A DNA stretch of 64,000 bases from Candidatus Eiseniibacteriota bacterium (GCA_043809585.1 JBDROZ010000111.1:50320-114319); one strand, 5' to 3'. Shown: positions 3,590 to 54,159, counted from the stretch's first letter. Program-made: numbers and translations. The notes: generated from the sequence alone by a model not told the origin.

Positions 3590-4987
3590 TCGGGCCCGCG
3601 GGATCCCCCCGGGGGGACCGGCGCCTCCCCGGCGTTCTCCTCTTCGCCGCCGTGGTCGTCGCCGTCGGGATCGGCGCGGGCCTCGCGGTCATCTCCCTGC
3701 CGACCAAGGTCGGCTGGGCCGCCGCCGCCGCGCTCGTCCCCGTGGCGGCCCTCGCCATGATCGTCCTCCGGAACCCGTACGCGGGGCTTCTCCTGATCTA
3801 CACGCTCGAGTACTTCCGGCCCCAGGACCAGATCATGGCTCTCATGCCCCTCCGGCTCCCCTTTCTCGCCACGGTGGGGGTGTTTTTCGTCCTCGTCATC
3901 ACCATCATCCGGGACCCGAAGCGGGGGATCGTCTGGCCTCGTCAATCGTGGACCCTCGTGGTCCTCCTCGCCTTCATGGCGCTTTCCGTCATCACGTCGG
4001 TCAACAACTTCTACGCCTATAATTTCTTCCGGGGCATGATCCTGACGTTCATGCTCTACCTGCTCACGGTGAACCTCGTCGACTCCCCGCGCCGTCTCCG
4101 GATCCTGATCGGGCTCCTGGTGGCCGCCCATCTCTTCCTCTGTCTCAAGGGGATCAGGCAGTTCGTGGTGGGGAACAGGTGGGGCACCACGGGGTCGGTG
4201 GGGGGCAACTTCCTCGGCGACGAGAACGACTTCGCCATGGCCCTCATCGTCATCTTCCCGTACATCTACTTCGCCATCGAGAAGAGCGTCCGGGGGCGCT
4301 CGAAGTTCTTCTGGATCGTCGGCGCCCCTCGTCGTCCTCACGACGATCATGCTCACCATGTCGCGGGGGGGCTTCGTCGGGATCGCGGTCACCCTTTTCT
4401 ACTGCTGGGTCCGGAGCAAGAGAAAGCTGGCGAGCGCCCTCGGGGTGGTCTTCCTCGTCGCCATCGTGGCCTCCCTCGCGCCGGAATCCTATTTCGGGGA
4501 GATCGGCTCGATCAAGGAAACCGACTCGGGGACCGCCCACAAGCGGCGGGAGTACTGGCTGGCCGGGATGCGCATGTACGCCGAGAAACCCCTCATCGGA
4601 GTGGGACCGGGGAATTCCCCCCTCTACATGCCTCAGTACCTCGACATGCCCCACGCGTACACCCAGTGGGGCAGGGCCATGCACGGGACGCTGCCGCTCC
4701 TCGCGGCGGAGATGGGGACCGTGGGCCTCATGATCTACGCGGTTCTCTTCTTCCAATGCGCGGGCGATCTCCGCCGGATGAAGAGGTCCAAGATCGGGGC
4801 GAGGGACCCGGAGGGGGGACGATTCCTCGAGTACTTCGCCGACGCCACGTCGACTTCCATTCTCGGGTTTCTCACGGCGGCCACGTTCCTGTCGGCCCTG
4901 TATTATCCGCACATCTACGTGCTCGCGTCCTTCTGCGCCCTCGGACGGCGCCTCTCCGTCGGAAAGCTCGGAAGGGGGGAGGAATGA
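3586..4987 (+). CDS. O-antigen ligase / Wzy-like polymerase (Wzy_C), reading frame interrupted
   Basis: GTG 3586 in a GTGA overlap. The N-terminal 8 or so TM helices are in frame 1 up to about 4325. The C-terminal part, with the SRGGFVG Wzy_C signature, is in frame 2 (ORF 4349..4987). Together they give about 460 aa, the expected size of a single Wzy. Confidence 0.65.
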
Positions 4988-11424: not shown

Positions 11425-12527
11425 GCGCCGGACATCCCACGGTTCTTCACTTCCTCTCCGGCGACCAGTGGGCGGGGGCCGAGGTCCAGGCGTGCCACCT
11501 CATGGCCGCCCTCGCCGCCCGCGGGCGCTACCGGCCCCGGGCCATCCTCCTCTGCGACGGCCTGCCCGCCCGGCGGCTCCGAGAGTCGGGTATCCCGGTC
11601 GCGGTGATCGACGAGGGGGGCCGTTCCTTTCTCTCCCTCGTCCGGGAGGCCCGGGCCCTCGTCCGGGATTGGTCCCCCTCCCTGGTCCACGGGCACGGCT
11701 ACAAGGAGAACCTCCTCGCCTGGCTCTCCAGCCGGGGCCTTCCGGTGAAGAGAGTCCGCACTCAGCACGGCACGCCCTATCCGGAAGGCTCCTTCCGTCA
11801 TCGCCTTCACTACCGTCTCGACCGGGCGGCGGCCCGGCGCGCCTTCGTCTTCACCATCGCCGTCTCCGAAGGGGTGGCCGCCGAAGTGGGGCGGTTTCTC
11901 CCCGCGGAGAAGATCGTTCTCGTCCGGAACGGAGTCCCCGCGCCCCCCGAAGAAGAGACGGCCCCGGAAGCTTCTCTTCCGCGGGGCGCCCCGGCGGTCG
12001 TCTCCGTGGGACGCCTCTCGGCGGAGAAGCGCTTCGACCGTCTGATCGACGCCGTCGCCCGCCTCACGGACGAGTTTCCGGAACTCCGGCTCGTTCTCGT
12101 CGGCGACGGACCGGAGAGGGCCCCCCTCGAGGACCGGGCCCGAGAACTCCTCGGCGGGCGGGCGACGTTCACGGGTTTTCAGGAATCGATAGGCCCTTGG
12201 ATCCGGAGGGGCACGGTGTACGCCCTCTCCTCCGACCGTGAGGGAATGCCCATGAGCGTTCTCGAAGCGCTTGCCCGGGGGGCCGCCGTCGCGGCGGTTC
12301 CGGTCGGCGGCGTTCCGGAGGTGGTGCGCACGGGGCGGACCGGAGTTCTCGCCGAAGCGGTGAGCGCCCCCGCCCTCGCCGACGCGATCGCGGTTCTGCT
12401 CCGGGATCCGGACCTCCGGGCCCGCGTCGGCGGCGAAGGCCGGGAGCTCGTCCGCCGCGAGTTTTCGATCGACCGGACCGCGGGGGAGACGGAGGCCGTG
12501 TACGCCCTCGCGGAGGGGGCGCGATGA
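11421..12527 (+). CDS. GT4 (GT-B fold) glycosyltransferase
   Basis: ATGA overlap at 11421. C-terminal EX7E-like region SDREGMPMSVLEALARG. Confidence 0.8.
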   Translation: MSAGHPTVLHFLSGDQWAGAEVQACHLMAALAARGRYRPRAILLCDGLPARRLRESGIPVAVIDEGGRSFLSLVREARALVRDWSPSLVHGHGYKENLLAWLSSRGLPVKRVRTQHGTPYPEGSFRHRLHYRLDRAAARRAFVFTIAVSEGVAAEVGRFLPAEKIVLVRNGVPAPPEEETAPEASLPRGAPAVVSVGRLSAEKRFDRLIDAVARLTDEFPELRLVLVGDGPERAPLEDRARELLGGRATFTGFQESIGPWIRRGTVYALSSDREGMPMSVLEALARGAAVAAVPVGGVPEVVRTGRTGVLAEAVSAPALADAIAVLLRDPDLRARVGGEGRELVRREFSIDRTAGETEAVYALAEGAR

Positions 12528-13771
12528 AGATCCTCTGGGTTTCTCACTTCGTGCCGTGGCCGCCGAAGGGGGGGAACCTCCAACGGTCGTACTATCTGAT
12601 GCGCGCCCTCGCCGAGGAGGCCACCGTCGACCTGATCTCTTTTCACCGCCGCGCCTCCCGGGCGGATGGCGATCTCCCCGGCGCCCGGGCGGCGCTCCGC
12701 GAGATCTGCCGGGACGTGGAGATCTTCCCCATCCCGAACGAGGCGTCCCGGCTCCGGTTCGCCGCCGGACTCGCCCGAAACCTGGCGGAGCGGGAGCCGT
12801 ACACGGTGATGGAACTCCGATCCCGCCCCTTCCGGCAGTCCCTCGCCCGGCGGCTCCGGGAAGGGGCGTACGACGCCGTTCATTTCGACACGATCGATCT
12901 CGCTCCCTACCGGCCTCTCGCCGGGGAGGGGCCCGCGGTCCTGAATCATCACAACATCGAGTCCCTCCTCTTTCGCCGCCGCGCCCCCTTCGAAAGGAAC
13001 CCCCTTGCGGGGAGGTACGTCGCGCTCCAGAGCCGCAGGCTCGCGCGGGCCGAGCGCCGCTGGTACCGCGCCTTCGACATGAACCTCTTCGTCTCCGAAG
13101 CGGACCGGGAGGCCGCGAGGGAGGAAGCGGGGCCCTTCGATGCCGAGGTCGTTCCGAACGGCGTCGACACCGAGTACTACCGGCCCGGGACGGAGGGGGA
13201 GGCCGACCGGATCGTTTGGGTCGGCGGGCTCGGTTGGTTCCCGAACCGGGACGCCGTGGCCCATCTCCTCGCCGACATCTGGCCCCGGATCCGCGCCGCC
13301 CGTCCCGAGGCGGAGCTCGACTTGGTCGGCGCGGCCCCCCGCCCCCTTCGCCCGGCGGGGTGGGATGGGCCGGGTGTCAAGGTCCACGGTTTCGTCGACG
13401 ACCTCCGTCCGCTCGTGGCGAGGGCCAAGGTCTTCGTCGTGCCGATCCGCGTGGGGGGGGGGACACGCCTCAAGATTCTCGACGCCATGGCGATGGGAAA
13501 GGCGATCGTCTCGACCACCATCGGCGCCGAGGGCCTCGACGGGAGCGGGGGAGAGGAGTGGATCACGGCCGATGCTCCGGAGGAGTTTGCCCGCGCCGTG
13601 GTCCGCCTTCTCGGCGACGGCGACGCGCGGCGCCGGGTCGGCGCCGCCGCCCGGAAGGGGGCGGAGCGGCGCTACGCCTGGAGAATCGTGGGGGAGAAGT
13701 TCAGGCGTGTATACCGGGATCTTGTCCGCGCGGGCGGGGAGGTCCGGGGGGAGGAAGAGAGAGGTGAGTGA
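12524..13771 (+). CDS. GT4 (GT-B fold) glycosyltransferase, EPS-locus sugar transferase type
   Basis: ATGA overlap at 12524; GT-B C-terminal domain; 415 aa. Confidence 0.75.
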   Translation: MKILWVSHFVPWPPKGGNLQRSYYLMRALAEEATVDLISFHRRASRADGDLPGARAALREICRDVEIFPIPNEASRLRFAAGLARNLAEREPYTVMELRSRPFRQSLARRLREGAYDAVHFDTIDLAPYRPLAGEGPAVLNHHNIESLLFRRRAPFERNPLAGRYVALQSRRLARAERRWYRAFDMNLFVSEADREAAREEAGPFDAEVVPNGVDTEYYRPGTEGEADRIVWVGGLGWFPNRDAVAHLLADIWPRIRAARPEAELDLVGAAPRPLRPAGWDGPGVKVHGFVDDLRPLVARAKVFVVPIRVGGGTRLKILDAMAMGKAIVSTTIGAEGLDGSGGEEWITADAPEEFARAVVRLLGDGDARRRVGAAARKGAERRYAWRIVGEKFRRVYRDLVRAGGEVRGEEERGE

Positions 13772-14861: not shown

Positions 14862-15051
14862 CCTTGATCCTCCACAAAATCTCGGCTCAAAACGCTGACG
14901 CTCGCATGATAGCACGCCATCTGCGACAGGGCGCGGCATTCACCAATGCTCACATATCGTTGGATATGCTCTGCTTGGTGAATTCCCCGCGCTGCCGCAT
15001 CTGGCGCACTCTCACGCGTTTGCTCTCGAGATTTTATGGAGAATCAAGGCT
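14860..15051. repeat. Imperfect inverted repeat with about 36-bp arms flanking a roughly 120-bp lower-GC core, between convergent genes; MITE-like element or bidirectional terminator
   Basis: Left arm agccttgatcctccacaaaatctcggctcaaaacgc; the right arm is its near reverse complement, gcgtttgctctcgagattttatggagaatcaaggct. The arms abut the wecB stop and overlap the last codons of the minus-strand GT4 gene. Confidence 0.6.
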
Positions 15052-16279
15052 GGCCGGAGGAGAGCTTCTCCCGGATCAGGTTCTCGATCCGGAGAACGAC
15101 ACGGTTCCAGTCGTGGAGGCGCGCCGTCTCGATCCGCCGTCGCCGGTCCTCTTCGGTTCCCGGTTCGACCGCCTCCCGGAGGGCCGCCACCCAATCGCCG
15201 GTCGTCAGCGCCGTGCGCACGGTCCCGGCGAATCCGGAGAAGCAGGGGAGGGGGACGGACACGACCGGGATGCCCGCCGCCTGGTACTCGTGGAGCTTCA
15301 GGGGATATCGGTGCACGCTCGCGTCGTCCACGCCGTAGGGGAGGATCCCCACGTCGAAGGAGGCGACGTAGGCGGGGAGATCATCCATCTCCTTCGCGCC
15401 GAGGATGTGCACGTTCGGTAGACCGGCCCACTCCTCGAAGAGATCCCGCGTTTCGCGGCTCACGACGAGAACGGGACCGATGAAGACGAATTGGGCGTGA
15501 GGCAGCCGGACCGCCGCCTCCCGGAGGATGTGAAAATCGAGCTTGTCGCAAATGCGGCCCAGGTAGCCGACCCGGGGACCGGGGGGGACCGCCGCGAGAT
15601 CGTCGGGGACGGGAAGATCACTCCCCGCCGCCGCCGAGAAGAGATCGAAATCGACTCCGTTCGGAACGAAGTGAACGGGCCGGCCGGGCCCGGACTTCCG
15701 CTCCGCCAGGGAGGGGGACGACGCGATCGCCACATCCGTCCTCGCGAGCAGGTCCCCCTCCTCCCTCTGCACGCGCTCCCGATTCGCCCCCGCATACCCC
15801 GAATACTCGTCGAGCATATGGTAGAGGACGAGCTTCTCCCCGAGTCCCCCGACATAGGGGGAGCGGAACTTCGGGTGGATGATGTAGAGGATCGGCCTCT
15901 TCCCGCCGAGGGAATCGACGGCGCGGCGAAGCGCCCGGAGACGCATCGATTCGATCGACCTCACGAGGCGCGGCGGCTTGTAGAAGTTGGGGAGCAGGCG
16001 GGAGAAACGGTAAATATAGAGGTGGTCCTCCCTGTGGCGGAGGCCCCGCCGCCCGAGCTCGGGGGCGAACCGGCTTCCGAAGACCTCGGTCCGCTCGAGG
16101 GGGGGGGGCACGTAGATCACACGGTTCCGGTAGGCGAGCCGCCGGAGCACCTGATTCCAGGTCTGGGTTCCCGGCGTCCATTCGGTCCAGCCGAAGCAGA
16201 CGATCGTCTCTCCCCGCATCCGGTCGGCGCGAGGATCCGGCGCCGAAGGAAGACCGTCGTCCCACGACGGGCCGCTCAT
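15044..16279 (-). CDS. GT4 (GT-B fold) glycosyltransferase
   Basis: Start ATG at 16279 overlaps the upstream stop (ATGA on the minus strand). C-terminal KLHEYQAAGIPVVS region; the ORF track's longer N-terminal extension is disregarded. Confidence 0.7.
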   Translation of the reverse strand: MSGPSWDDGLPSAPDPRADRMRGETIVCFGWTEWTPGTQTWNQVLRRLAYRNRVIYVPPPLERTEVFGSRFAPELGRRGLRHREDHLYIYRFSRLLPNFYKPPRLVRSIESMRLRALRRAVDSLGGKRPILYIIHPKFRSPYVGGLGEKLVLYHMLDEYSGYAGANRERVQREEGDLLARTDVAIASSPSLAERKSGPGRPVHFVPNGVDFDLFSAAAGSDLPVPDDLAAVPPGPRVGYLGRICDKLDFHILREAAVRLPHAQFVFIGPVLVVSRETRDLFEEWAGLPNVHILGAKEMDDLPAYVASFDVGILPYGVDDASVHRYPLKLHEYQAAGIPVVSVPLPCFSGFAGTVRTALTTGDWVAALREAVEPGTEEDRRRRIETARLHDWNRVVLRIENLIREKLSSGQP

Positions 16280-17568
16280 CTTCTCGCCTCCTCGAGGAGC
16301 GCCGCGAGCCGCTCGGTGAGCCGCCGGAAATCGAACCGCTCCGACCGCCGCGGGGGAGGAGGGAGAGACCGCCCGGCCGCGCGGCGGAGGAGTTCCTTCA
16401 CGCGCTCCGGTTCCCCCGGCCCCACGATCCAACCGAGACCCTCGCGGCGGACGATGCTCTCCGTGGCGCCGCCGCTCGTGAGGGCGAGGATCGGCCTGCC
16501 GACGGCGATGTACTCGTAGAGCTTCCGCGGAATCTGGAGGTCCGTTCCGGTTTGGATGAGCAGGAGAAGGTCGGAGGAGGCGAGGAGGCGGATCGCCTCG
16601 TCCCTCGGCACCTTCGCCTCGAACGTCACGATCCGGGAGAGCCGGTGTGATTGAAGAAACTCCTTGTAACGCTCTTCACCGGCCGCGCTCCCGATGAAGG
16701 TGAGCCGGACGTCGTCCTCGCCGATCGCCCCCTCCTCGATCAGCTCGGAGAGAGCCCGGAGAATCGGCGTCGGGTCTCTCCGCCCGTAGAGAGAGCCGGC
16801 GTGGAGGATCCGGACCGGGCCTCCGGTGCGAACCGGGGCTTCGGGCACGTCCTCCTCGGGGTCGTACCCGTTGGTGATGGTGACGAACTTCGACCGGTCC
16901 CCTTCGTAACGCCTCTCGAAGTCGCTCCGCAGTTCCTCCGTGTTGGCGATGATCCGGGTCGCCCCGTCCACCACCCGCGCCTCGAGCCACCGGTCGAGGG
17001 GATCGAGGAAGGGCGTGCTCCGAGCGGGGGAGAAGTCGTTGGAGATCCAGGGATCCCGGAAGTCGGCGACAAAGGGGAGGTCCCGGCACCGCGCGGCGAC
17101 GAGAGCGGCGACATGGGCGCTCGCGGGGGGGGATGAGCTGTAGACCACGTCGATGTTCTCCGCCCGGAGCGCCTCCATCGCCGCCGCGCCGATCCAGCCC
17201 ATCTGCCGGTCGGGTACGGCGAAGAAATCGGAGACCCAGTCCCTCCACGTCGCGCATTCCTCGGGCCCCCCGGCGGCCGCGAAGTCGCCGTTCGATCCCC
17301 GCCCTCTCCCCGCGAGACGGTTCCGGATCCGGAGGGCCGCCCGGAGCGGGTCCGCCGCCGCCGCCCGGAGGACGCGAGTCTCCGGGGGAAGGCCGAGGAG
17401 AGGCGCGTCATCGAGGACCCCCCCGTCGCCCGTCGAATCGGGGCGCACGGTGAGAACCACGGGACGCCATCCGAAGCGGGGGAGATACCGGGCGAACTGG
17501 AGGGACCGGTACATGCCGCTCGTCGTCAGCGGAGGAAAGTGGTACGCGATGAGAAGGAGGGTGCGCAT
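16276..17568 (-). CDS. GT4 (GT-B fold) glycosyltransferase
   Basis: Start MRTLLLIAYHFPP at 17568, 430 aa, preceded by an AGGAAG-type RBS. The ORF track merges it into an 1149-aa high-GC run-through. Confidence 0.75.
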   Translation of the reverse strand: MRTLLLIAYHFPPLTTSGMYRSLQFARYLPRFGWRPVVLTVRPDSTGDGGVLDDAPLLGLPPETRVLRAAAADPLRAALRIRNRLAGRGRGSNGDFAAAGGPEECATWRDWVSDFFAVPDRQMGWIGAAAMEALRAENIDVVYSSSPPASAHVAALVAARCRDLPFVADFRDPWISNDFSPARSTPFLDPLDRWLEARVVDGATRIIANTEELRSDFERRYEGDRSKFVTITNGYDPEEDVPEAPVRTGGPVRILHAGSLYGRRDPTPILRALSELIEEGAIGEDDVRLTFIGSAAGEERYKEFLQSHRLSRIVTFEAKVPRDEAIRLLASSDLLLLIQTGTDLQIPRKLYEYIAVGRPILALTSGGATESIVRREGLGWIVGPGEPERVKELLRRAAGRSLPPPPRRSERFDFRRLTERLAALLEEARR

Positions 17569-28888: not shown

Positions 28889-29075
28889 CTCATGGCTTCG
28901 GAGTGAGCGGGGGACTGGTTCCGCCCGAGGCTCCGGCTCGGAAGACATCAGTCCGACTTCAGCGGACCCTGTCCCCCTCCGAGGGGGTACCGCACGCGAA
29001 GATCACCATTCCAGGGTGCAGAGGAGGAGTCGGAGGAGAACGGAACCCGCCGGCTCCGTCTACTCTGCAGGCACC
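28889..29075. repeat. Repeat family B copy (about 150-190 bp structured element)
   Basis: The core cttcggagtgagcgggggactggttccgcccgaggctccggctcggaagaca ... attccagggtgcagaggagga recurs at 55181-55335 (same orientation) and 41893-42075 (inverted). Confidence 0.65.
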
Positions 29076-30577
29076 AAGAACACCACCACCGTGTCGGCGG
29101 CGGTGGAGTGGGTGTCGTCGGTGACGGCGGCGACGATGTGGACGGCGAGGGTCCCGGAGGGGGACTCGGCGAATGTGTAGTAGGGCGAAGCCCACGCCGT
29201 GGAGTCGTCGAGGGCGACCGCGAAGAGGGAGTTGCCTACGGTGACGAAGACAGAGTCGGGAGCCGCGCGGCAGGAGGCGGCGACGGTCCCCCCCCGGATG
29301 GAGACGCTGTCGCCCGTCACGAAGTAGGAGCCTTCCGCGGGTGAATCGATCAGCACTTCGAGAGGGATGGACTTGAACTCGATGCTGTCCGCGGCCCCTC
29401 GAACGTAGAAGTCGTTCTTGAATTGGGCGTGGACGAAATAGGTTCCGGATGTGTCCCCAATTTCCCAGCTCTCGATTGACTTGTAGGGGACCCACTCTTC
29501 ATCGGCGAAGGACGTATCAGGAGAGAGCTTCATGTAGATCGCATCCGCGGTGATGGTCAGAGTGACCTCGCAATCGTACGCGATTTCGTTTCCTCCGTCG
29601 AGAACCAACGAGGCGAACGACAGATCGGCAGGCCATATCGAATCAGCGACCACCGTGTCGACACCGAACTCGGTGGAGAACTCGGCGAAGAGCACCTTCT
29701 TCATGAGGGTGCCATCCAGTAGCCACGAGACCAGGGTATCCACGCTCTTCGTTGAATCGATTTCAGGTATCAGATCCCCATCATCGCCGAAGTTCTCGTC
29801 GGCGCTGAGAATCAAGCGGGTGAGGTTGCTCCCTGAAACCTCCGCCTGGACCCAGCGCCGGGCGGTGGTTGAAGCGCCCCCGGCGAGGATCACCGTTCCA
29901 TTCGTCGCGGCAGTCGCGATGGTGTCGGACACGAAGGGAGACTCCTCCCCCCCCTCTCGCCGGACCTTCATGTAGATCCTCTTCGTCCCCTTCCCCTCGC
30001 TCAGGGTCCACGTTCTGGCCGAGTCGAAGGGTTCCCACGACACCCCCTCGAGAAGGGTGTCCTCGGCGAGGAGCATCTCGTCGGCGAAAGCGGCGCCCAC
30101 GAAGAGCGATACCTGGCGCACCGCCGTCTCCCCGGCGCCCCCCGCGATCTCGAGGAAGGGGGGGACCGAGACCGAGTCGAGTCCTCGCCCGGTGGTGTCC
30201 GCTTCCGATCCGTCCGCCCCGATCGGGGCGATCCGGTACCAGCTCTTCGCGAAGTAGACCGGGTGGGGCTCGACCCACGTCTTTGCGGTCCCGCCCGCCG
30301 TGTCGACCCGGGCGAAAAGAGAGTCGAACTGGCTTCTCCGGAAGATCGTGATTCCCTGAAGCCCCGGCACGCCGAAGGCGTTCCACTTCAGGCTGACCCT
30401 TCCCTCCGCATAGACGGCGTCCAGCCCGTAGTGGGGAGCCCCGCCGGTGTTCGGGTTGTCCGGGTCGAAGGGATTGACCGGTCCCTCCCGGCCCGGCTTC
30501 GAGTCGCACCGCGCCGCGGCGATCGCCAAGAAGAGCAGGATCGAAAGGAGAAGCCCGCGCCGCACCGATTCGCCCAT
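29060..30577 (-). CDS. Hypothetical secreted lipoprotein-like protein (505 aa)
   Basis: N-terminal signal peptide ending ...LAIAAARC; no recognisable catalytic motifs; GC3-rich coding signal. Confidence 0.5.
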   Translation of the reverse strand: MGESVRRGLLLSILLFLAIAAARCDSKPGREGPVNPFDPDNPNTGGAPHYGLDAVYAEGRVSLKWNAFGVPGLQGITIFRRSQFDSLFARVDTAGGTAKTWVEPHPVYFAKSWYRIAPIGADGSEADTTGRGLDSVSVPPFLEIAGGAGETAVRQVSLFVGAAFADEMLLAEDTLLEGVSWEPFDSARTWTLSEGKGTKRIYMKVRREGGEESPFVSDTIATAATNGTVILAGGASTTARRWVQAEVSGSNLTRLILSADENFGDDGDLIPEIDSTKSVDTLVSWLLDGTLMKKVLFAEFSTEFGVDTVVADSIWPADLSFASLVLDGGNEIAYDCEVTLTITADAIYMKLSPDTSFADEEWVPYKSIESWEIGDTSGTYFVHAQFKNDFYVRGAADSIEFKSIPLEVLIDSPAEGSYFVTGDSVSIRGGTVAASCRAAPDSVFVTVGNSLFAVALDDSTAWASPYYTFAESPSGTLAVHIVAAVTDDTHSTAADTVVVFLVPAE

Positions 30578-30579
30578 GA

Positions 30580-31290
30580 TCAGAACCTCACCTGGAGGAC
30601 GACCGCCGACCCCTCTCCCGGGGCGTACGCCGGTCCTATCGCGACGGGTCCCGCGTTCTCCAAGTCGCCAAAGGGAAAGGCGAACAGGGCGTCGAGCAGG
30701 GAGAGCCCGTACACCGCGGCGGCCGTCACCAGCGCGCCGTCCCGGTTCCTCTCGGCGTCCGACATCTCGTCGTACTTGGCGTCCCGCGCCGCGCGGTTCC
30801 GGGCGATCGCCTCTTCGGTGACCGCCGCCCGGTAGAGATCACTCATCTCCTCGAAATCATCCCGCCGGGCCTGAAAGGTCCCTTCCTGCCAAGCCGCGTA
30901 GCCCAAGACAACCGCCTCCGCGAGGAAGTAGAGGGCGCCTCGCATCGGGTTTTCGTTGTACGCCACGCCCCATCCGGGCACGACAAGGCCCCGCCAGAGA
31001 GCGTCCTGCCGTCGTTTCTTGTGAAGGTAGTGGATCCGGGTCTCCCCGCGGGATTCCAAGAGGTGAACCTCTTCGGTAATCCTCTCGTAGCCGCGCCGCT
31101 CGAGGATGATCTCGTGGAGTCCGGGGGCGAGACGGATCTCATTTTGCGGGAGGGGGCCGTATGATCGGCCGTCGACTCGGAGGTGGGCGCCCGGCGTTCC
31201 TTTCACGGTGAGTGCGCCTTCGTCGGCCCGGGCCGGTACGGCCGACAGGGCGATCCCCGACGAGAGCAGGAGCAGGGAGAGCTTGCGCAC
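30580..31290 (-). CDS. Secreted PEGA-domain protein
   Basis: Probable GTG start giving MRKLSLLLLSSGIALSAVPARA. PEGA-like segment ALTVKGTPGAHLRVDGRSYGPLPQNEIRLAPGLHEIILERRGYE. The ORF track start at 31356 is probably too long. Confidence 0.5.
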   Translation of the reverse strand: MRKLSLLLLSSGIALSAVPARADEGALTVKGTPGAHLRVDGRSYGPLPQNEIRLAPGLHEIILERRGYERITEEVHLLESRGETRIHYLHKKRRQDALWRGLVVPGWGVAYNENPMRGALYFLAEAVVLGYAAWQEGTFQARRDDFEEMSDLYRAAVTEEAIARNRAARDAKYDEMSDAERNRDGALVTAAAVYGLSLLDALFAFPFGDLENAGPVAIGPAYAPGEGSAVVLQVRF

Positions 31291-31602
31291 GATACGAATC
31301 CTCCGCCGGGCATACCGGCCGCCACGAATTGTACCAGTAGGGCCTTGAGGATACACGAATTTCCTACTGCGTCTTCGGTTCGCGGGATGGAAGGCCTCCT
31401 TTCCTTCGCCGCTTCCTCAACGGGGCTAGGGGCCCCGCCTCCGGGAGCGGCTCGTCCAAGTCGGCCTTTCACCACGCGAACCAAACCCTCGTGACGGAAG
31501 TTCATGTATCCTCCAGGCCCGGCCTCCCGGACAGCGGCGATGTGTTTTCCTACGTACAGGAACATGAGTCCACAATTGATGACAAGCCCGGACAGGAGTA
31601 AG

Positions 31603-33574
31603 ATGCGCTTCAAGAACGACTTCGACGGTTCGTTCCGGGCTTCCGCGCGGCGGGGCGGCGCGCGGCGCCTCTCTCGTCATGTTCTGCTCCGGAGGGGGGC
31701 TCCTCTGATCTTCCGAGTCATTCTCGGCTTCGCCGCCCTGGGGGCGATCGTGGGACTCGTCCGGGGGGGCATCGACGTGGCCGCCGAGCGGTATCTCTCC
31801 CTCGGCCTCGGGCGGAACGCCGCGCTCCTCCTCGAGGGGGAAGTGAACCGGGCCGCCGTCGGGGGGCTCGCCTTCGCCGTCCTTTCCTATCTCGTGGGGC
31901 GGATCGTCGGGCGCGTCTCACCTCGGCCCGTCCGCCACCCCCTCTCTCTCGGCATCTCCGTCACCCTGGGCGTGATCCTCCTCCTCCGGTTCGGGTGGAG
32001 CTACAACCGGTATTCCGTCTTGACCCTTTGGACTGAGAAGGCGGCCGTTCTCGGCGCCCACCTGCCGAAGGCTCTCGTCCACCCGAAGGCGCTCGCCGTG
32101 AACGGGGGGATCGTGGCCGTCGCGGTCGTGGCGGCCGTCGTTCTCTATCTTCCGATGCGGGCGTGGCTCGCCCGCCGGGGGGGGGGAGCGGTTCCCTCTC
32201 CGGCGGACGGTGACGGCGCTCACCATTCTGGGGACGCTCCTCATCGTCGCCGCGAACGCCGCGGATCCCCTGCTTTTTCGGGGTCGCCGCCCGGAAGGCC
32301 CGAACGTCCTTCTCGTCTCCCTCGACAACCTCCGGGCCGACGGTCTCGGATGCTACGGCGCCGAACGGCCGACGTCACCCGCCATCGATGCCTTTGCCCG
32401 GGAGTGCGTCCTCTTCGAGAACGCCCACAGCCAATCCCCCTACACGCTCCCTTCCCACGCTTCGTTCCTCTCCTCCCGCTACCCGTCGGTGAACCACGCG
32501 AGCATCCGAGGCAACCGCCTCCCGGCGGCGCGGGTCCTCGGGACCGAGCTCTTCCGCGAGGCGGGGTACCGCACCTTCGGGATCGTGGACACGCCCTTCC
32601 TCACCGACCGGTACGGGCTCGAGCAGGGGTACGATCATTTCGTCGGGTGGGGGCGGGGGGGGGCGCACATCGTCCCGGCGGCCCGGAGCCGGCTCGAAAA
32701 GACCGTCGGGACGCCCTTCTTCTTCTTTGTCCACATCTACGACATCCACGCGCCCTACGCCAAGGACCCGGAGTACCGGAAGATGTTCCTCGACTTCGAC
32801 TATGGGGGGAGCGTCTCCTCCGAGGGGCACGTCCTCGCCCGGTGGCAGAAGATGAAGAAGGAGGGGGAAGACCCGGGGTTCGAGATTGCCGAGGAGGACG
32901 GGCGCTATCTGGAGGCACTCTACGATGGGGGGATCCGGTCGACCGACGACCTTCTGGTCGGTCTTCTCGACGACATCTCGAAAGGACCCCTCGGCGAGAA
33001 CACGATCGTGATCATCACCGCCGACCACGGCGAGGAGTTCCTCGAGCACGGCCAGGTTCTTCACGACGACCTCTATCGCACGCTCACCCACGTTCCCCTG
33101 CTGATCCGGCTGCCCGGCGGCGTACGGGGGGGAACGAGGATTCCCGACCCCGTGGGGCTCATCGACCTTCTGCCGACTCTGATCGACCTGACCGGCATTC
33201 CGGCGCCGGTCCGCCTCGACGGGCGGTCCCTCGTCCCCCTGATCGAGGGGGGGGAGAGGCCGGACCGCCCGGTGTTCGGCGAGATGCCCCGGGGTGGGGG
33301 GAGGGTGGCGGTGGTCCGGGGCCGGTGGCACCTGGTCGGCCACCCGGACGGTGAACGATGGGAGCTCTATCGATACGGCGAGGACCCCTTCGAGCAGGTC
33401 GACCTTTCGGCGGACCGACCGGAGTTGGTCGATTCGCTTCGGGCGATCCTCGATGGGTGGCTCCTCGATCTGCAGGCGCAGAAGTTCGAGGAACCGCACC
33501 TCAAAGCGAAGGCGGCGGACGTGGATGAAGAGACCCGGGAGCGCCTGCGCGCCCTCGGCTACCTGGACGAGTGA
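31603..33574 (+). CDS. LtaS/EptA-like membrane-anchored sulfatase-family (alkaline phosphatase superfamily) enzyme, frame interrupted at a poly-G run
   Basis: The N-terminal domain of 4-5 TM helices is in frame 1 (good GC3 bias). The sulfatase domain (LVSLDNLRADGLGCYG, ITADHGEEF) is in frame 2 from about 32210. The join lies in a G homopolymer near 32175-32190. No CxPxR formylglycine motif. Confidence 0.6.
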
Positions 33575-33592
33575 TCTCCTCTCCGCCCGCGG

Positions 33593-35281
33593 CTAGTGCA
33601 CGAGCAGCATCTTGCGGGTCGCCGTTCCCTCATCCGTGACAAGGCGGTAGAAGTAGGTCCCGGAGGGGGCCGGAGCGCCGTTTCCGGCGCGGCCGTCCCA
33701 AACCGCCTCGTGTTCCCCCGCGCCCAGGGTGCCCCGGCGAAGCGTCCGGACGAGCCGTCCCGTCACGTCGTAGATCGAGAGATTCCCATCTCCGCGGCGA
33801 TCCAATGTGAAGCGGATCGTCGTCGCGGGGTTGAACGGGTTCGGCGTGTTCGGATAGAGGGCGTGCCGGGTCGGGATGTCACCGTCCCCCGCCGCCTCGG
33901 CGACGCTCGTGGAGACGAGGGGCTCCGCGAGCTCCCCGATCGTCGCGATCGACGCTTTCGTCACCTTCATGCCGAAGTTCCCGTCGTTCAGGTCCGTCCT
34001 GTCGCAGGAGCGGTGGTAGCACGGGTACTGCCCGTACTCGGTCTCGATGATCTCGATCGCCGGATACCCCTGCTCGATGAAGGAGACGTGGTCGGAGCCG
34101 GAGTAGCTGTAGGTGATCTGGGTGCCGAGATCGGTGTACTCGGCAGAGGCGTCGGCCCAGAGATTCCGGAGCCAGGAGTAGGAGCCGACGGACCCGATAT
34201 TCACCTGGTAGAGCTGGTCGTGCCACGCCACCATGTCGCAGTTTACGACTCCGATGATGTTCTCGCCCGCCGCCGCGGCCGCCTGGGCGTAGTTCCTCGA
34301 CCCCTTCAGGCCCTGCTCCTCGCCGGTCCAGGCGCAGAACTTGATGGTGGAGCGAAAACCGTAGTCCTTCATGATCTCGGCGGCGGTGAGCACCACGGAC
34401 GTGCCGCTCGCGTTGTCGTTCGCCCCCGGGGCATCGAGGGAGCCGTTGATATTGGTCGCGTCCATGTGGCCGCAGAGAATGACCACGTTCCCCGGCGTTT
34501 CCGTCCCCGGCAGGGTGGCGATGACATTCCTGGCGACGGTGTTGTTGAACGTGAAGGTGTCGAACTCCACTTCCGTGAATCCCATGGCGAGGAACTGTTC
34601 GTAAACGTAGCGCTCCGCCGTGTCGCAGTCGGCGTGGAAAGTGTTCCGCGAGAGAATCGTGTCCGGCACGCCCCCGATCAGGACGCCGTTGTTCCCGGCC
34701 AGGTTCCCGATCCATTCCATGAAGCCCGCCGAGTCGGCCCGGGCGACCATCTGGTCGATGAGGGGGCCGAAGGTCGTGACCGGCGCGCGGAGGTGCTCCG
34801 GCGGGCCATCGAGGACGGGGCGCCGGATCGGCTCGGAGCGCAATGTCCGTTTTTCGAGATCGACGTACGGCTCCCCTTCGGGCAGGAGGCCGGAGGCGGA
34901 CACGATCGAGTTCCACCCGTCGCTCCAGACCAGCTTCGAGACGGACCCCCCTTCGAGCCGGGCAGGATCGATCAGCCCGGGGATGGAGACCGGGCCCCGG
35001 CCGCGGACCATCCAGATCGCCTCTCCCTCGGGAGCGGAGAAGGGCCCTTCGACCCGGAAGCCTGCATCCTGGAGGAGGCCGGCGGAAAAACCCTCCCGGA
35101 GCACGAGAATCTCCGGCGTCATGCCGTAAACGTCCGCCCCCGAGTCCCACGCCCCTTCCAAAGTCCGGTCCCCGTCCAGGGGGACCACCCAGAGCGACGG
35201 GGCCGGGGTCGCGTCGCCCGCGTCGCCCGCGTGGGGGATGAAGAAGAGCAGGGCCACGATGAGCGGAATCCGGCGGTTCAT
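33593..35281 (-). CDS. M28-family zinc aminopeptidase with T9SS C-terminal sorting domain
   Basis: HMDATN...GANDNASG M28 metal-binding signature. C-terminal NTPNPFNPATTIRF...GTYFYRL...RKMLLVH. Signal peptide; AGGAG RBS. Confidence 0.85.
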   Translation of the reverse strand: MNRRIPLIVALLFFIPHAGDAGDATPAPSLWVVPLDGDRTLEGAWDSGADVYGMTPEILVLREGFSAGLLQDAGFRVEGPFSAPEGEAIWMVRGRGPVSIPGLIDPARLEGGSVSKLVWSDGWNSIVSASGLLPEGEPYVDLEKRTLRSEPIRRPVLDGPPEHLRAPVTTFGPLIDQMVARADSAGFMEWIGNLAGNNGVLIGGVPDTILSRNTFHADCDTAERYVYEQFLAMGFTEVEFDTFTFNNTVARNVIATLPGTETPGNVVILCGHMDATNINGSLDAPGANDNASGTSVVLTAAEIMKDYGFRSTIKFCAWTGEEQGLKGSRNYAQAAAAAGENIIGVVNCDMVAWHDQLYQVNIGSVGSYSWLRNLWADASAEYTDLGTQITYSYSGSDHVSFIEQGYPAIEIIETEYGQYPCYHRSCDRTDLNDGNFGMKVTKASIATIGELAEPLVSTSVAEAAGDGDIPTRHALYPNTPNPFNPATTIRFTLDRRGDGNLSIYDVTGRLVRTLRRGTLGAGEHEAVWDGRAGNGAPAPSGTYFYRLVTDEGTATRKMLLVH

Positions 35282-35409: not shown

Positions 35410-37065
35410 TCATCGGAGGAGGGTCATTTTTCGGGTCTCGCTCAGCTCCCCGGCGGCTACCCGGCAGAAGTAGACGCCCGACGGGGCTTCGGCGCCCTCT
35501 TCGTCCCGGCCGTCCCAGGGGATCTCGTGCAGCCCCGCTTCGAGGGGGCCGCGGTGAACCGTCCTCACCCGGCGCCCCGAGATGTCGAACACGGTGACCA
35601 GGGCGTCGGAAGGGCGGGCCAGGTCGAAGCGGATCGTGGTCGCCGGATTGAACGGATTCGGCCGGTTCTGGGCCACCCGGCCCGGCGCCGGCGCCCCTTC
35701 CTCCACGACGATGGTGGTCTCATCGATCGGCTCGGCGAGATGGGCCACCGTGGCGAGGCACGCCCGGACGATTTCGGCGCCGTAGACCCCCTTGTTCAGT
35801 CCCGTGGTGTCGCAGGTGGAGTGATAGCAGGGGTAGGTGTCCCAGTTCCGTTCGATGGCGAGGAAGCAGGGGAACCCCTCGTTCTGGAAGGGGACGTGAT
35901 CCGAGCCCCAGCTGTAGTAGTCGAGCCGGGTCCCGAGGGAGGTGTACTCCTGGCAGGCGTCGTTCATCAGCTGCATGAGCCACTCCCACGGATTCTCCCC
36001 CTCGATGATGAGTGCGTAGTGCGTTCCGTACCAGGCGACCATGTCGCAGATGACGACGCCGAGGATCGAGTCGCCCGCCGCCGCCGCCTGCTGGGCGTAG
36101 TGGGAGGAGCCGTGGAGCCCCTGTTCCTCGCCCGTGAAGGCGATCAGCTTGATGGTCGACTTGAACCGGTACTGGGAGAGCACCTCCGCCGCGGCGAGCA
36201 CCGCCGCCGTCCCGCTCGCGTTGTCATTCGCGCCGGGGGCGAGGGTATTGGGGATGGGCGAGGTCGAATCGAGGTGGCCGCCGAGGATGTAGATGCGATC
36301 CGGCGTCTCCTCGCCGACGATCGTGGCCACCACGTTACGTGCGCTCGTGCTCTGGAAGGTGTACGGATCGAATTCGACGCTGTCGATGCCCATGGCGAGG
36401 AACCGCTCGTAGACGTACCGCTCCGCCGTGTCGCACTGGGCGTTCTTGGTGTACCGGGTGGAGAAGGTGAAAGGCCCGCCGTCGATCGTGACCTGGTTCG
36501 CGCCGGCGAGGTCGCCGATCCACTGCATGATGTCCGTCGAGTCGATCTGGGCGGCCATCTCGTCCACCAGGGGCGGGAAGACCGTGGCGGCGCTCTTCTC
36601 GCGGGAAGGGGCCCGGTCGACCAGGGGCCGCCGGATCGGCCGCTCCCGGAGGACTTTCGCCGAGAGCCCATGCAGGTGGCCGGGCGCCTCTTCGGTGTGG
36701 ACGATCAGGTTCCGCCCGTCGGTCCAGAGAATGTGGAGATCCGGATCCGTCCTCTCCCCTCCGCGGGCGCCGAGGAACGCCGGGACCGACCGGCCTCGAG
36801 GCCGGAGCAGAGAGACGACGCCCCCTTGGGGCAGGTCGATGGGGCGGCTCACCCGGAAGCCGGCATCCTTCAGGCGGGCCGCGGAGGTCTCGTCGGCCAC
36901 GATCAGGGCGTCCGGGAAACGGTCGAGCACCGCGGCCCCGGCGCTCCACGCGTCCCGCACCGTGCGCTCCCCGCCGAGCGGGGCGACCCAGAGGGTGGAA
37001 GGCGCGGCGGCGGAGAAGCCGGGAAGAAGCGCGAGCGCGAGAAGAAGGCGGACACGAGCTTTCAT
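35410..37065 (-). CDS. M28-family zinc aminopeptidase with T9SS C-terminal sorting domain (tandem paralog)
   Basis: Start MKARVRLLLALALLPG at 37065. HLDSTS...GANDNASG signature; C-terminal NRPNPFNPATTIRFDL...GVYFCRV...RKMTLLR. Confidence 0.85.
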   Translation of the reverse strand: MKARVRLLLALALLPGFSAAAPSTLWVAPLGGERTVRDAWSAGAAVLDRFPDALIVADETSAARLKDAGFRVSRPIDLPQGGVVSLLRPRGRSVPAFLGARGGERTDPDLHILWTDGRNLIVHTEEAPGHLHGLSAKVLRERPIRRPLVDRAPSREKSAATVFPPLVDEMAAQIDSTDIMQWIGDLAGANQVTIDGGPFTFSTRYTKNAQCDTAERYVYERFLAMGIDSVEFDPYTFQSTSARNVVATIVGEETPDRIYILGGHLDSTSPIPNTLAPGANDNASGTAAVLAAAEVLSQYRFKSTIKLIAFTGEEQGLHGSSHYAQQAAAAGDSILGVVICDMVAWYGTHYALIIEGENPWEWLMQLMNDACQEYTSLGTRLDYYSWGSDHVPFQNEGFPCFLAIERNWDTYPCYHSTCDTTGLNKGVYGAEIVRACLATVAHLAEPIDETTIVVEEGAPAPGRVAQNRPNPFNPATTIRFDLARPSDALVTVFDISGRRVRTVHRGPLEAGLHEIPWDGRDEEGAEAPSGVYFCRVAAGELSETRKMTLLR

Positions 37066-37388
37066 CGTTCGTTCATCCTCTCTCCGGCCGAAACCGGCGC
37101 GAAACGGAGGCTCCCGGCCCGCGGTCCGGGACGACAGGGGAGTGCAAAGGCGAATTCCTTCACGGGAGACCGGACGGGGGGCAGTCATCTTCTCAGAGGG
37201 GCGGGCGCGCCCGGATTTGATAACTGCAATGATGATAACACTCTTTTGGGTCCCCCGTCAATCTTCGGGCGCTCCTTGCGGGCCCCTCGGCCCATCCGGT
37301 ATGATGAACGTCTCGCGTGCGACCCCCACGGGAGCGCGCGCTCCCCGAGGCAGAACCCACGGCCCATCGTCCGAGGAGAGGATCCACA

Positions 37389-51586: not shown

Positions 51587-52168
51587 GTGAGAAAGATCGT
51601 CCTCGCATCCACCTCCCGTTATCGGCGCATGCTGATGGACCGTCTCGGTCTCCCATACGAAGCGATGGCCCCCGCCTCGGACGAGGAGGGAGTCGATCAC
51701 CTGCCGGCGGAGGAGCGGGCCCTCGCCCTCGCCGAGCGAAAAGCCCGGTCCGTCGCGGCCTTTCGCCCCGATGCCGTCATCATCGGCTCGGACCAGATCG
51801 CCGAGCTGGAGGGTTTCACGCTCAGGAAGCCGGGGGGCTTCGAGATGGCCGGGGAGTCGCTCCGGCGGCTGCGGGGGCGGGAGCACCGGCTCGTCACGGG
51901 CGTGGCGGTCGTCGACGCCCGGGACGGTCGGATGGAGACCGCCCTCGACGTCGCGGTCCTCCGCATGCGGGACCTCGGCGACGATGAGATCGAGAACTAC
52001 CTCCGCCGGGAGGAGCCGTATGACTGCGCCGGCGCCTATCGGATCGAGGGGCTCGGCGCGGCCCTCTTCGAGTCGATGGAGACCGGGGACCCGACGGGCA
52101 TCATCGGTCTTCCGCTCACCCGGGTGACCGCCCTTCTCTCGCGCTTCGGCGTCGAGGTGCTCCGGTGA
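51587..52168 (+). CDS. maf: Maf-like nucleoside triphosphate pyrophosphatase
   Basis: GTG start. N-terminal IVLASTSRYRR and the Maf fold motifs SDQI...LVTGV. Confidence 0.85.
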   Translation: MRKIVLASTSRYRRMLMDRLGLPYEAMAPASDEEGVDHLPAEERALALAERKARSVAAFRPDAVIIGSDQIAELEGFTLRKPGGFEMAGESLRRLRGREHRLVTGVAVVDARDGRMETALDVAVLRMRDLGDDEIENYLRREEPYDCAGAYRIEGLGAALFESMETGDPTGIIGLPLTRVTALLSRFGVEVLR

Positions 52169-54159
52169 GGGGGGGGGCGAAGCCCGTCACGGTCGCGGTT
52201 CTTCTCCTTCTCTCCCTCCTCGTCTTCCTCTCCGCCTTCTTCCGGATCAACGCCCCCGACTTCGGCTGGCACCTCATGAACGGGAAATGGATGGCGGAAC
52301 ACCGGATGATCCGCTTCGCCGATCCGTTCTCCTACACGAGCGAGGGGCGGTCGTACCCGCCGACCCAGTGGGCTTTCGAGATCGTGTCGTGGATGATCTA
52401 CCGCAAAGCGGGCGTGGCGGGGATCATCGCCGCGAAGGCGCTGCTCCTCTCCCTGCTCTTCTTCGTCCTCGGCCGGCTCCTGATTCGCGAGGGGGCGGGG
52501 CTGCCTTCGGTGGCCCTCCTCCTTCTCGCCGGGCTCCATCTCATCCGGTTCCGGTTCATCGTGCGCCCCGATCTCGTGACCTTTCTCGGGATCGCGCTCA
52601 CGCTGTCGATCCTGTACGACTACCGGCGGGGGAGGAGGGACCGCCTTCGCCGGCTCCCGCCGCTTTTCCTGCTCTGGGTTCAGTTCCACTCGGGGGCGCT
52701 CTTCGGTCTTCTCCTGCTCGGATCGACCTGGCTCACCGAGGAGATCCTCGACCGGGCGTGGCCGGCGGGATCGAGGCTCGATCGGAAGGCGCGAAACCGG
52801 CTTCTTCTGTGGACCGTGATCGCCGGGCTCGCCACGCTCGTCAACCCGAACCACGTCCGGTATGCGACGTTCGCCCTCGGCCACGTGGAGGACTACGCCA
52901 AGTACGCGATCCGGGAGCTCCGGCCTCTCTCGTGGGAGCTCGACCGGAGCCTGGTGCTCTATCTCGGGGCGGCCGCGGCGATCGGTCTCGCCCGGATCCG
53001 CCGGGACGCTGCCGCGCTCCCCGCGCTCTTCGCGGTCGGGCTCATGGCGGCGAGGTCGGTCCGTCTCTTCCCTCTCTATCTGATTCTCTCGCTCCCGATC
53101 CTCGCCGGGGCGCTCCGCTTCGACAGGGGATTCGTGCGGACTTTCTGGACGGGCGCGGCGACGGCGGCGGCCCTCTTGCTCGCGGTTTTCGCGGCTCGGG
53201 AGACGGGGGTGTTCGGGACGCGGGACGATCTCTACCGGTTCGGCATCGGCGTGAACGACAGGCTCCTTCCGGCGGCCGGGGCGGACGCGCTGGAGCGCCT
53301 GAATCCCGAGGGCAACCTCTTCAACTCGAACCTGTACGGCGGGTATCTGATCTGGCGCTTTGAAGGGCGGCGGAAGGTCTTCACCGACGGCCGGAGCCAG
53401 CTCCACGAGCGGACTCTCGAGTTCGTGCGGGATCACGACTGGGAGGAGATCTTGGGCCGGTACGGGATCGGGCACGCGCTGATCGATCACCGATGGGGGA
53501 AGCCGCGGCTGCCGTCGAACGATCGGATGCGGCTCGTCTGGTGGGACGATCTCTCGATGCTCTTCGTGAGCCGGGAGGAGGCGGAGCGGCGGGGACTCCC
53601 GGGCTACGAGTACCGCTACCCGGTGGAGGAGTGGCCGGACATGTTCCGCCTCGATCCGGCCCGGGTGGAGAGGGAGCTGACGCGGGCGGTGGAGGAGGCA
53701 CCGGGGGCGGTGCTCCCCCGGTTCCTGCTGGCGTTTCTCTACAGCGCGGCGGGGGACTGGGCGAGGGCGGAGCCGCTCCTGGCGGGGGCGCTCGAGATCG
53801 CGCCGTGGCGGAAGGATCTCCGGATCGACCACGGAATCGCCCTCGCCCGGACGGGACGGGAGAAGGAAGCGATCGTGCAGCTCCGGCGGGGACTGAAGGG
53901 GGACGACAGGAACGCGCACGGGTACGGCTGGCTCGGGAATCTGCTCCAGCGGGCGGGGGATGGCAAAGGTGCGGAGAGGGCGTTCCGCCGGGCGATCGAC
54001 ATCGAGCCGGAGAACCCGTCGTACCCGCTCGCCCTCGGGCGGTTCTACGAACGGGAAGGGGAGAGGGAGAAGGCGCTCGCGACCTACCGTGATTTAGGGA
54101 GGCGCTTTCCGGACAGTCCGGAGGTGCAGAAGAGGCTGGAGGAGTCGGGAGTACGATAG
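52165..54159 (+). CDS. Polytopic membrane protein with C-terminal TPR repeats (second GT-C/TPR-like protein)
   Basis: GTG start in a GTGA overlap. About 10 N-terminal TM helices (GWHLMNGKWMAEH loop); the C-terminal 200 or so aa are TPR-like. Confidence 0.5.
   Translation: MRGGAKPVTVAVLLLLSLLVFLSAFFRINAPDFGWHLMNGKWMAEHRMIRFADPFSYTSEGRSYPPTQWAFEIVSWMIYRKAGVAGIIAAKALLLSLLFFVLGRLLIREGAGLPSVALLLLAGLHLIRFRFIVRPDLVTFLGIALTLSILYDYRRGRRDRLRRLPPLFLLWVQFHSGALFGLLLLGSTWLTEEILDRAWPAGSRLDRKARNRLLLWTVIAGLATLVNPNHVRYATFALGHVEDYAKYAIRELRPLSWELDRSLVLYLGAAAAIGLARIRRDAAALPALFAVGLMAARSVRLFPLYLILSLPILAGALRFDRGFVRTFWTGAATAAALLLAVFAARETGVFGTRDDLYRFGIGVNDRLLPAAGADALERLNPEGNLFNSNLYGGYLIWRFEGRRKVFTDGRSQLHERTLEFVRDHDWEEILGRYGIGHALIDHRWGKPRLPSNDRMRLVWWDDLSMLFVSREEAERRGLPGYEYRYPVEEWPDMFRLDPARVERELTRAVEEAPGAVLPRFLLAFLYSAAGDWARAEPLLAGALEIAPWRKDLRIDHGIALARTGREKEAIVQLRRGLKGDDRNAHGYGWLGNLLQRAGDGKGAERAFRRAIDIEPENPSYPLALGRFYEREGEREKALATYRDLGRRFPDSPEVQKRLEESGVR

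Follow-up and report, generated by a model that had tools for sequence, protein, structure and literature searches.

A sulfatase-fold membrane protein gene split by a one-base frameshift at or beside a run of ten G in a Candidatus Eisenbacteria genome

Results and discussion

A gene divided between two reading frames

The window analysed here is a 64,000-nucleotide stretch (67% GC) of a metagenome-assembled genome (MAG) from Candidatus Eiseniibacteriota. One of its envelope genes is distributed over two reading frames, and has the following parts and features.

31603..32190, + strand: 5' part of the gene in frame mod3=1 (residues 1-196), encoding a disordered basic N-terminus, transmembrane (TM) helices TM1-TM4 and a conserved, predicted periplasmic hairpin loop
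Residues G131, N135, R136, W143, G151 and P155 of the 5' part: conserved positions of the hairpin loop, from an alignment to the N-termini of homologues
32177-32186, + strand: homopolymer of 10 G, codons CGG GGG GGG GGA (R-G-G-G), in the TM4-TM5 loop
32190..32191, + strand: GG dinucleotide at which the extra base is most parsimoniously placed (GCG/G/TTC)
32192..33574, + strand: 3' part of the gene in frame mod3=2, encoding TM5 (196-224), a sulfatase-fold domain and an SGSH_C-like C-terminal subdomain
32210-33574, + strand: deposited coding sequence inside the 3' part (MFH1279740.1, 454 amino acids, GTG start)
32444..32458, + strand: active-site motif T-L-P-S-H, in which T281 replaces the formylglycine Cys/Ser and H285 replaces Arg

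Reading-frame analysis of the deposited sequence shows that a one-base frameshift is genuinely present between 31603-32190 and 32192-33574. The 5' part starts with the ATG at 31603 (another ATG lies upstream in the same phase, at 31504), and a codon-position scan finds high GC3 in its frame (0.78-0.90) from ~31550 to ~32150. After ~32150 the GC3 signal is that of frame mod3=2 (0.82-0.98), and it continues up to the stop codon at 33572-33574. Frame mod3=1 stays open to 33352, 1.2 kb beyond the break, where its translation is Arg/Pro-rich nonsense. Frame mod3=2 is closed by a stop at 32099, and a scan for start codons after this stop found no ATG, GTG or TTG ahead of the GTG at 32210. In a crude six-state periodicity scan of the window, the frame changes 23 times on the same strand (16 times on the + strand and 7 on the - strand), and only two of these transitions, at ~32190 and ~4320-4330, have no old-frame stop near the switch. 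Such a pattern is characteristic of a frameshift by one base rather than of a boundary between genes. An earlier reading of the region from its sequence only had described a membrane-anchor ORF in frame 1 and a sulfatase ORF in frame 2 that are split by a frameshift, and both the GC3 switch and the arrangement of stops and starts agree with that description.

The deposited protein (P0002, MFH1279740.1) is 100% identical to the product of the 3' part from the GTG at 32210, and is named "MAG: sulfatase [Candidatus Eisenbacteria bacterium]". For the 5' part, a search of the protein collection found no protein on record. A promoter and terminator scan of 31200-33800 found no promoter-like site, and the sole terminator-like hairpin in this interval (32113-32138) is GC-rich coding sequence at chance level.

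Relatives carry both halves in one chain

Removing one base joins the two parts into a protein of 656 amino acids, and its closest homologue in the protein collection is also 656 amino acids long (P0001; 76% identity, 100% coverage). Ten others (P0003-P0008 and P0010-P0013) are 34-60% identical to the repaired protein, with 80-96% coverage. Ten of these 11 intact homologues span 621-665 amino acids and the other, P0013, has 567. The TM domain and the catalytic domain occupy a single chain in all 11, and the alignment has invariant residues in both halves. In the N-terminal domain, the conserved loop positions listed above are invariant, or nearly so in the case of G151. Gene order is retained as well. 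The contig encoding P0001 (L001) is syntenic with the window, since upstream of P0001, on the other strand, it has a 504-amino-acid gene and a PEGA/DUF5683 gene with counterparts at 29060-31356 (a gene of 504/505 amino acids and a second PEGA/DUF5683 gene). The DUF5683 neighbour is also kept on the P0003 contig.

The AlphaFold2 (AF2) model of the repaired protein has a mean pLDDT of 91.4 and a pTM of 0.88, so the modelling proposed along with the sequence-only reading yields a confident fold for the fused ORF. Five helices (35-62, 70-105, 113-138, 161-191 and 196-224), with a beta hairpin in the TM3-TM4 loop, are followed by an alpha/beta catalytic domain. The break is located in a four-residue Arg-rich loop between TM4 (161-191) and TM5 (196-224), and therefore the deposited 454-amino-acid ORF begins at TM5. 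The Arg-rich N-terminus and the Arg-rich TM4-TM5 loop suggest a topology in which the N-terminus is inside, the TM4-TM5 loop is cytoplasmic and the catalytic domain is periplasmic.

The two ORFs are halves of one gene that is broken by one base. The possibility that they are separate genes in relatives, which had been left open when the break was first noticed, is not borne out, as they are fused in 11 of 11 homologues, including the syntenic 656-amino-acid orthologue. The explanation that they are two separate genes in this genome is rejected because of these fusions and of the 1.2 kb over which the upstream frame has no stop.

Compared with the orthologue on L001, the gene has no other lesion. 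The ratio dN/dS relative to this orthologue is ~0.18 in the catalytic half and ~0.6 in the TM half, which indicates that the TM domain is evolving faster; these values average over the whole divergence, and the age of the lesion is outside their reach.

No other assembly of the species is represented in the protein collection, where nothing apart from the deposited fragment exceeds 76% identity, and the best JGI protein has 53% identity. Scanning genome contigs retrieved only relatives of at most 46% identity, with full-length matches of at most 37%, and searching for contigs that encode exactly P0002 or P0005 yielded none.

Position of the extra base

In the deposited sequence, the 10 G are followed by AGCGGTTC. 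We tried every single-base deletion between 32140 and 32224 and scored each product globally against the orthologue (L001/P0001). The highest score (2611) is obtained when G32190 or G32191 is deleted, giving RRGGGAFPLRRTVT, the same as P0001 (RRGGGAF); all nucleotide differences from L001 in the 14 codons 191-204 are then synonymous third positions. Deleting a G of the run also restores an open frame of 656 amino acids, and gives RRGGERF with 5 nucleotide differences in 2 codons and a score of 2598. A MAFFT alignment of the DNA likewise places the gap 3' of the G run. L001 reads CGC CGG GGG GGG GGC GCC TTT (R R G G G A F), and thus has an identical 10-G run in frame. In the DNA alignment with a more distant homologue of 60% identity (L002), no long run is present at the corresponding site.

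The sequence-only reading had put the shift inside a G run of 9-11 nucleotides. The length of the run is within that range, although the string quoted for it had 9 G and the actual run (32177-32186) has exactly 10; the best repair lies 4-5 nucleotides 3' of the run and not within it. On codon differences alone, we estimate that a repair outside the run would be favoured by about two orders of magnitude. However, a G10 run slips or is miscalled more readily than a GG dinucleotide by at least an equal factor (about two orders), which offsets the codon evidence, so that the extra base may lie either in the run or at the GG. From the coordinates, we estimate the chance of finding a frameshift within 5 nucleotides of one of the six runs of at least 9 G in the 64 kb at roughly 0.2-0.4%. 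Because this proximity exceeds chance, the G run was probably involved in the origin of the indel, in the cell or in the sequencer.

Long G runs are common in this genome

The window contains 44 G or C runs of at least 7 nucleotides (36 G and 8 C), and only six runs of at least 9 G, three of which are G10. Besides the run at the break, these are the following.

5468: G9 run, in frame
13453: G10 run, in frame, in a group-1 glycosyltransferase gene (12242-13771)
16099: G10 run, in frame and read CCC CCC CCC, in a glycosyltransferase gene on the - strand (15044-16432)
32655..32663, + strand: G9 run in the same gene as the break, in frame (G-W-G-R-G-G-A-H)
52169: G9 run at a stop/start overlap (gene boundary)

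Runs of this kind are at the level expected from composition. Words of nine G occur 9 times in the window; shuffling with dinucleotides preserved gives 8.4±3.7, and 47 of the 100 shuffled sequences contain at least 9. Gly makes up 10.6% of residues, GGG accounts for 39% of Gly codons, and CGG for 50% of Arg codons. The G9 run at 32655 shows that such runs are nothing unusual within genes of this genome. Systematic miscalling of homopolymers is also unsupported as a general explanation, given that the five other runs of at least 9 G are without a frameshift.

A second frameshift in an O-antigen-ligase-family gene

The other frame transition without an old-frame stop nearby belongs to an O-antigen-ligase-family gene, which passes from frame mod3=1 (N-terminal TM helices) to mod3=2 at ~4320-4330. 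The mod3=2 portion extends from an ATG at 4349 to 4987, begins MLTMSRGGFVG and matches Wzy_C with an E-value of 7e-17. When one C of the C4 run at 4325-4328 is deleted, the alignment across the join is free of gaps, and the repaired ligase matches intact homologues of 436-477 amino acids (P0121-P0134) with 48-67% identity and 91-100% coverage. The gene is intact in more than 15 homologues.

The two frameshift sites are 28 kb apart, and each consists of one surplus base. The C4 site has no long repeat, and because a frameshift has occurred there independently of one, indels in this assembly are not specific to a tract that could act as a switch. Both frameshifts are better accounted for by indels left in the consensus, or by a background level of recent pseudogenes, than by a dedicated switch.

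A sulfatase-fold enzyme with a threonine at the formylglycine position

In the repaired protein, the Pfam Sulfatase model (PF00884) matches residues 233-532 with an E-value of 2.3e-37, spanning model positions 1-301, and SGSH_C (PF16347) matches with an E-value of 1e-10. A profile search of the PDB retrieves type I sulfatases and phosphonate monoester hydrolases, among them 4upi (E 8e-58), 4upl, choline sulfatase and GALNS-like enzymes. The top Foldseek matches to the AF2 model are type I sulfatases (6ust, 6g5z, 7stt and 4uph; E-values of 1e-19 to 1e-20, the best being 8e-21), and their target-normalised TM-scores are 0.62-0.71. Type I (S1) sulfatases such as 6g5z, 4upi/4upl (SpAS1/2) and 6ust thus have in common with this protein the fold, the SGSH_C-like subdomain, and acidic and His residues (D241, D474 and H475). 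However, they are soluble and carry C/S-x-P-x-R, whereas the protein described here has T-L-P-S-H and a five-TM N-terminal domain.

An HMM alignment to 4upl puts T281 opposite the Cys of C-G-S-S-R, within the context S-Q-S-P-Y-T-L-P-S-H-A-S-F-L-S-S-R-Y-P. Across 69 homologues from many phyla, T281 never varies, and neither do D241, D474 and H475, which resemble metal-site residues. The sequence-only reading was correct that CxPxR is missing; the formylglycine motif C/S-x-P-x-R is absent, and T-L-P-S-H occurs at the aligned position. Since formylglycine cannot form without this motif, canonical sulfate-ester hydrolysis is unlikely. In the alkaline-phosphatase (AP) superfamily, a Thr nucleophile is typical of phosphoryl-transfer enzymes, such as NPP, EptA and LtaS. 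Because the Thr nucleophile characterises these enzymes, phosphoryl-transfer chemistry is predicted, and the protein may be a phospho-ester hydrolase or transferase rather than a sulfatase.

A closer relationship to LtaS, EptA or MdoB had also been proposed, and here the architecture agrees but the details do not. Like LtaS, EptA (MCR) and OpgB, the protein has a five-TM N-terminal bundle, an extracytoplasmic AP-superfamily domain and a Thr nucleophile. However, the NCBIfam models of EptA, LtaS, CptA and MCR score only 15-24 bits over partial stretches, far under their cut-offs of 404-1250 (EptA 23.9 bits with a cut-off of 561, LtaS 17.5 with a cut-off of 970), and the nearest relatives in sequence and structure lie elsewhere. 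HMM scans of the N-terminal 194 residues found no Pfam family, including EptA_B_N, and nothing in NCBIfam. The AF2 model of the TM domain (pLDDT 80.5) has no match in the PDB with an E-value below 0.5 by Foldseek; its comparison with full-length MCR-1 (9nww_B) gives an E-value of 2.4 and a TM-score of 0.13, so that there is no structural match to MCR-1/EptA. The surroundings of the nucleophile, T-L-P-S-H-x-S-x-L-[ST]-S-x-Y-P, are sulfatase-like or NPP-like and unlike those of LtaS and EptA; the motif of NPP enzymes, for comparison with T-L-P-S-H, is T-F-P-N-H. Membership of the LtaS/EptA families is therefore unsupported, and the likeness is one of architecture only. No paper on sulfatase-like AP-superfamily enzymes that combine a Thr nucleophile with a TM anchor came up in a literature search.

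The clade with this Thr is widespread, and occurs in Eisenbacteria, Planctomycetota, Acidobacteriota, Myxococcota and other phyla, where its members are annotated as "arylsulfatase A-like" and carry T-L-P-S-H. Some of them are fused to a five-TM domain that has neither a Pfam family nor a structural match. Many are 440-490 amino acids long and consist of a signal peptide or lipoprotein signal and the catalytic domain alone. The deposited 454-amino-acid fragment resembles such a normal short relative, which is probably why it was annotated as a protein. Another family member, P0005 (MFH1279219.1), is intact, with 641 amino acids, and its accession is 521 numbers from MFH1279740.1. It is probably a paralogue in what would be the same MAG, and may be able to cover the function.

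Causes of the frameshift

We consider an indel in the consensus or assembly to be the most likely cause of the frameshift, and hold this explanation with moderate confidence. The locus would then be one gene for a 656-amino-acid inner-membrane enzyme in which five TM helices precede a periplasmic domain of sulfatase fold that carries T281. One surplus base, at the 10-G run or no more than 5 nucleotides from it, would have arisen in the MAG consensus sequence at or beside the long homopolymer and would put the catalytic half out of frame, whereas the organism itself would make the full-length protein. Support comes from the full-length alignment to homologues, the synteny, the confident AF2 model, the lack of any other lesion and the second frameshift in the window. 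Homopolymers are a weak point of long-read consensus sequences, where leftover indels frequently shift the frame and break up the genes called in MAGs, and runs of at least 10 are still problematic even with R10.4 (PMC9262707). As in such cases, a one-base indel at or beside a run of at least 10 bases splits a conserved gene here, and the window has another one-base indel at a short homopolymer. Unlike in typical cases, the five other runs of at least 9 G are free of frameshifts, so homopolymers, including the other G10 and G9 runs that are read in frame, have mostly been called correctly, and the best repair is 4-5 nucleotides outside the run, which is less typical of a pure error in homopolymer length. 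Moreover, two frameshifts in ~55 genes could equal a normal load of pseudogenes. Assembly error, which the sequence-only reading had listed as a candidate, remains the leading option.

Less probable, and in our judgement rather unlikely, is that the frameshift is real and non-adaptive, the gene being dispensable and either recently inactivated by mutation or polymorphic at the strain level. The cell would then make a four-TM stub with a nonsense tail, and may also make the 454-amino-acid product from the GTG at 32210, with TM5 serving as a signal anchor, as in the short relatives. Dispensability is consistent with the probable paralogue P0005 (641 amino acids), which could cover the function, with the many homologues of 440-490 amino acids that have only a signal and the catalytic domain, and with the faster change of the TM domain (dN/dS ~0.6 compared with 0.18); the second frameshifted envelope gene in the window also fits. 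However, the TM domain is fused in every one of the closest relatives, the syntenic P0001 among them, and secondary lesions are absent. Because the gene has no other lesion, any real inactivation would be very recent. Sequence alone gives no distinction between an inactivation of this kind and a consensus error.

That the gene is a phase-variable contingency locus, as originally suggested, now appears improbable. In this explanation, slipped-strand mispairing in the G10 run would switch the gene between the full-length protein, at 9 or 12 G with the flank as it stands, and a state that is OFF or truncated, at 10 G. Tracts of 10 G are intrinsically hypermutable in Neisseria, Haemophilus and Campylobacter, and a tract of this type does lie inside the coding region. 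The frameshift is within 5 nucleotides of it, a coincidence with the probability given above if the two were unrelated; the product faces the envelope and is an enzyme of the kind that such switches usually target; and one G fewer in the tract restores the open 656-amino-acid frame. The contingency loci of these three genera resemble the present case in having a G tract of at least 7 in the reading frame of an envelope enzyme, and the length present here, with its flank, is out of frame. They differ in several respects, since such tracts show no over-representation in this genome of 67% GC, and the tract considered here falls in a loop in the middle of the gene and not near the 5' end, and belongs to an uncultured environmental lineage (Candidatus Eisenbacteria).

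Several observations count against a switch. Words of at least 9 G occur at the level expected from composition (9 compared with 8.4±3.7), and the other long runs, including the other G10 runs, are in frame. The 44 G/C runs of at least 7 nucleotides in these 64 kb can be compared with 29 polyG/C loci of at least 7 in the whole genome of C. jejuni NCTC11168, which constitute its phase-variable set (PMC4965091). The single comparator available among relatives, the 76% identical orthologue, has a tract of 10 that is in frame, and shortening the tract here would bring 5 nucleotide differences into 2 codons. The homologue with 60% identity (L002) lacks the tract, and the second frameshift in the window, at C4, needs no repeat. 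A variant, in which reversible slippage at G10 would switch localisation between the full-length five-TM anchored form and a truncated, signal-anchored or secreted form starting from TM5, seems to us highly improbable.

It is very unlikely that the split is decoded or intended, through slippage of the RNA polymerase, or of the ribosome by +1, along the G run or as two genes by design: a tRNA-Gly or the nascent RNA may re-pair perfectly after a one-base slip on 10 G, and the downstream ORF begins with a GTG of its own and a hydrophobic leader, but known transcriptional slippage sites are mostly A/T runs whereas this run is G, the upstream ORF lacks a stop for 1.2 kb, no relative needing a shift at the same site was found, and all 11 close homologues, including the orthologue with the same G10, encode the fusion in one frame, so a requirement for recoding is not conserved.

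Conclusions

As a frameshift, this finding is an ordinary event of a known kind. If the tract proved heterogeneous in length, phase variation in an uncultured lineage from the environment would gain a rare candidate, and if slippage switched localisation, this would extend phase variation beyond ON/OFF control and outside host-adapted pathogens. With two broken envelope genes in the window, gene calls from the source MAG need to be checked for indels before splits are read as biology, and corrected models for both genes are a useful by-product of this analysis, as is the observation that this "sulfatase" clade does not belong to the formylglycine sulfatases. The deposited 454-amino-acid "sulfatase" (MFH1279740.1) is the 3' two-thirds of a 656-amino-acid membrane protein, and it is probably not a sulfatase, as an invariant Thr replaces the formylglycine motif.

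A second frameshifted gene and homopolymeric runs

A second gene in the window split by a one-base frameshift, in addition to that for the sulfatase-like enzyme, belongs to the O-antigen-ligase (Wzy_C) family. It lies in a glycan-biosynthesis cluster that also includes two group-1 glycosyltransferase genes, each carrying an in-frame G10 run.

3580-4987, +, frameshifted O-antigen-ligase-family (Wzy_C) gene; break at about 4320-4330, at a C4 run (4325-4328)
12242-13771, +, group-1 glycosyltransferase gene; G10 run at 13453-13462
15044-16432, -, group-1 glycosyltransferase gene; G10 run at 16099-16108
52165-52177, GTGA stop/start overlap with a G9 run directly 3' of it

The N-terminal half of the Wzy_C gene is read in frame mod3=1, and the other half is an ORF in frame mod3=2 that extends from an ATG at 4349 to 4987. 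When one C is deleted, the resulting protein aligns without gaps to intact homologues of 436 to 477 amino acids (48-67% identity). Neither half has an entry among the deposited proteins.

Coding homopolymers near the 5' end of a gene occupy a classic switch position. If the GTG at 52165 is the true start of ORF 52165-54159, the G9 run would form codons 2 to 4 (R-G-G) of this ORF.

Runs of at least seven nucleotides show a strong strand asymmetry across the window (36 of G versus 8 of C), and all six runs of at least nine are G on the + strand. This asymmetry is partly explained by an excess of coding on the + strand, which carries about 77% of confidently coding codons, and by heavy use of GGG and CGG codons. 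However, codon usage does not account for it fully, because the run at 16099 encodes poly-Pro (CCC) within a minus-strand gene.

Relatives and neighbours of the sulfatase-like gene

An intact 641-amino-acid protein encoded outside the window (P0005, MFH1279219.1) shares 50% identity with the sulfatase-like enzyme and belongs to the same family, with five transmembrane segments and a Thr-sulfatase-like domain. Its GenBank accession is only 521 numbers from that of the sulfatase-like gene's product and, judging by this proximity, it is probably a paralogue within the same MAG.

A PEGA/DUF5683 membrane protein gene is transcribed divergently from the sulfatase-like gene, and the pair is conserved in all three loci examined: the window, the locus of the intact syntenic orthologue (L001) and that of a 60%-identity homologue (L002). 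A tandem pair of paralogous M28 peptidase genes also occurs in the window.

30580-31356, -, PEGA/DUF5683 gene in the window
1727-2437, PEGA/DUF5683 gene in L001
347-1063, PEGA/DUF5683 gene in L002
33593-35281, -, M28 peptidase
35410-37188, -, M28 peptidase

Both peptidases have a FlgD_ig / Por_Secre_tail-like C-terminal domain, and ORF 61328-63397 ends in an apparently similar tail, which suggests that the three proteins share a common secretion or sorting signal.
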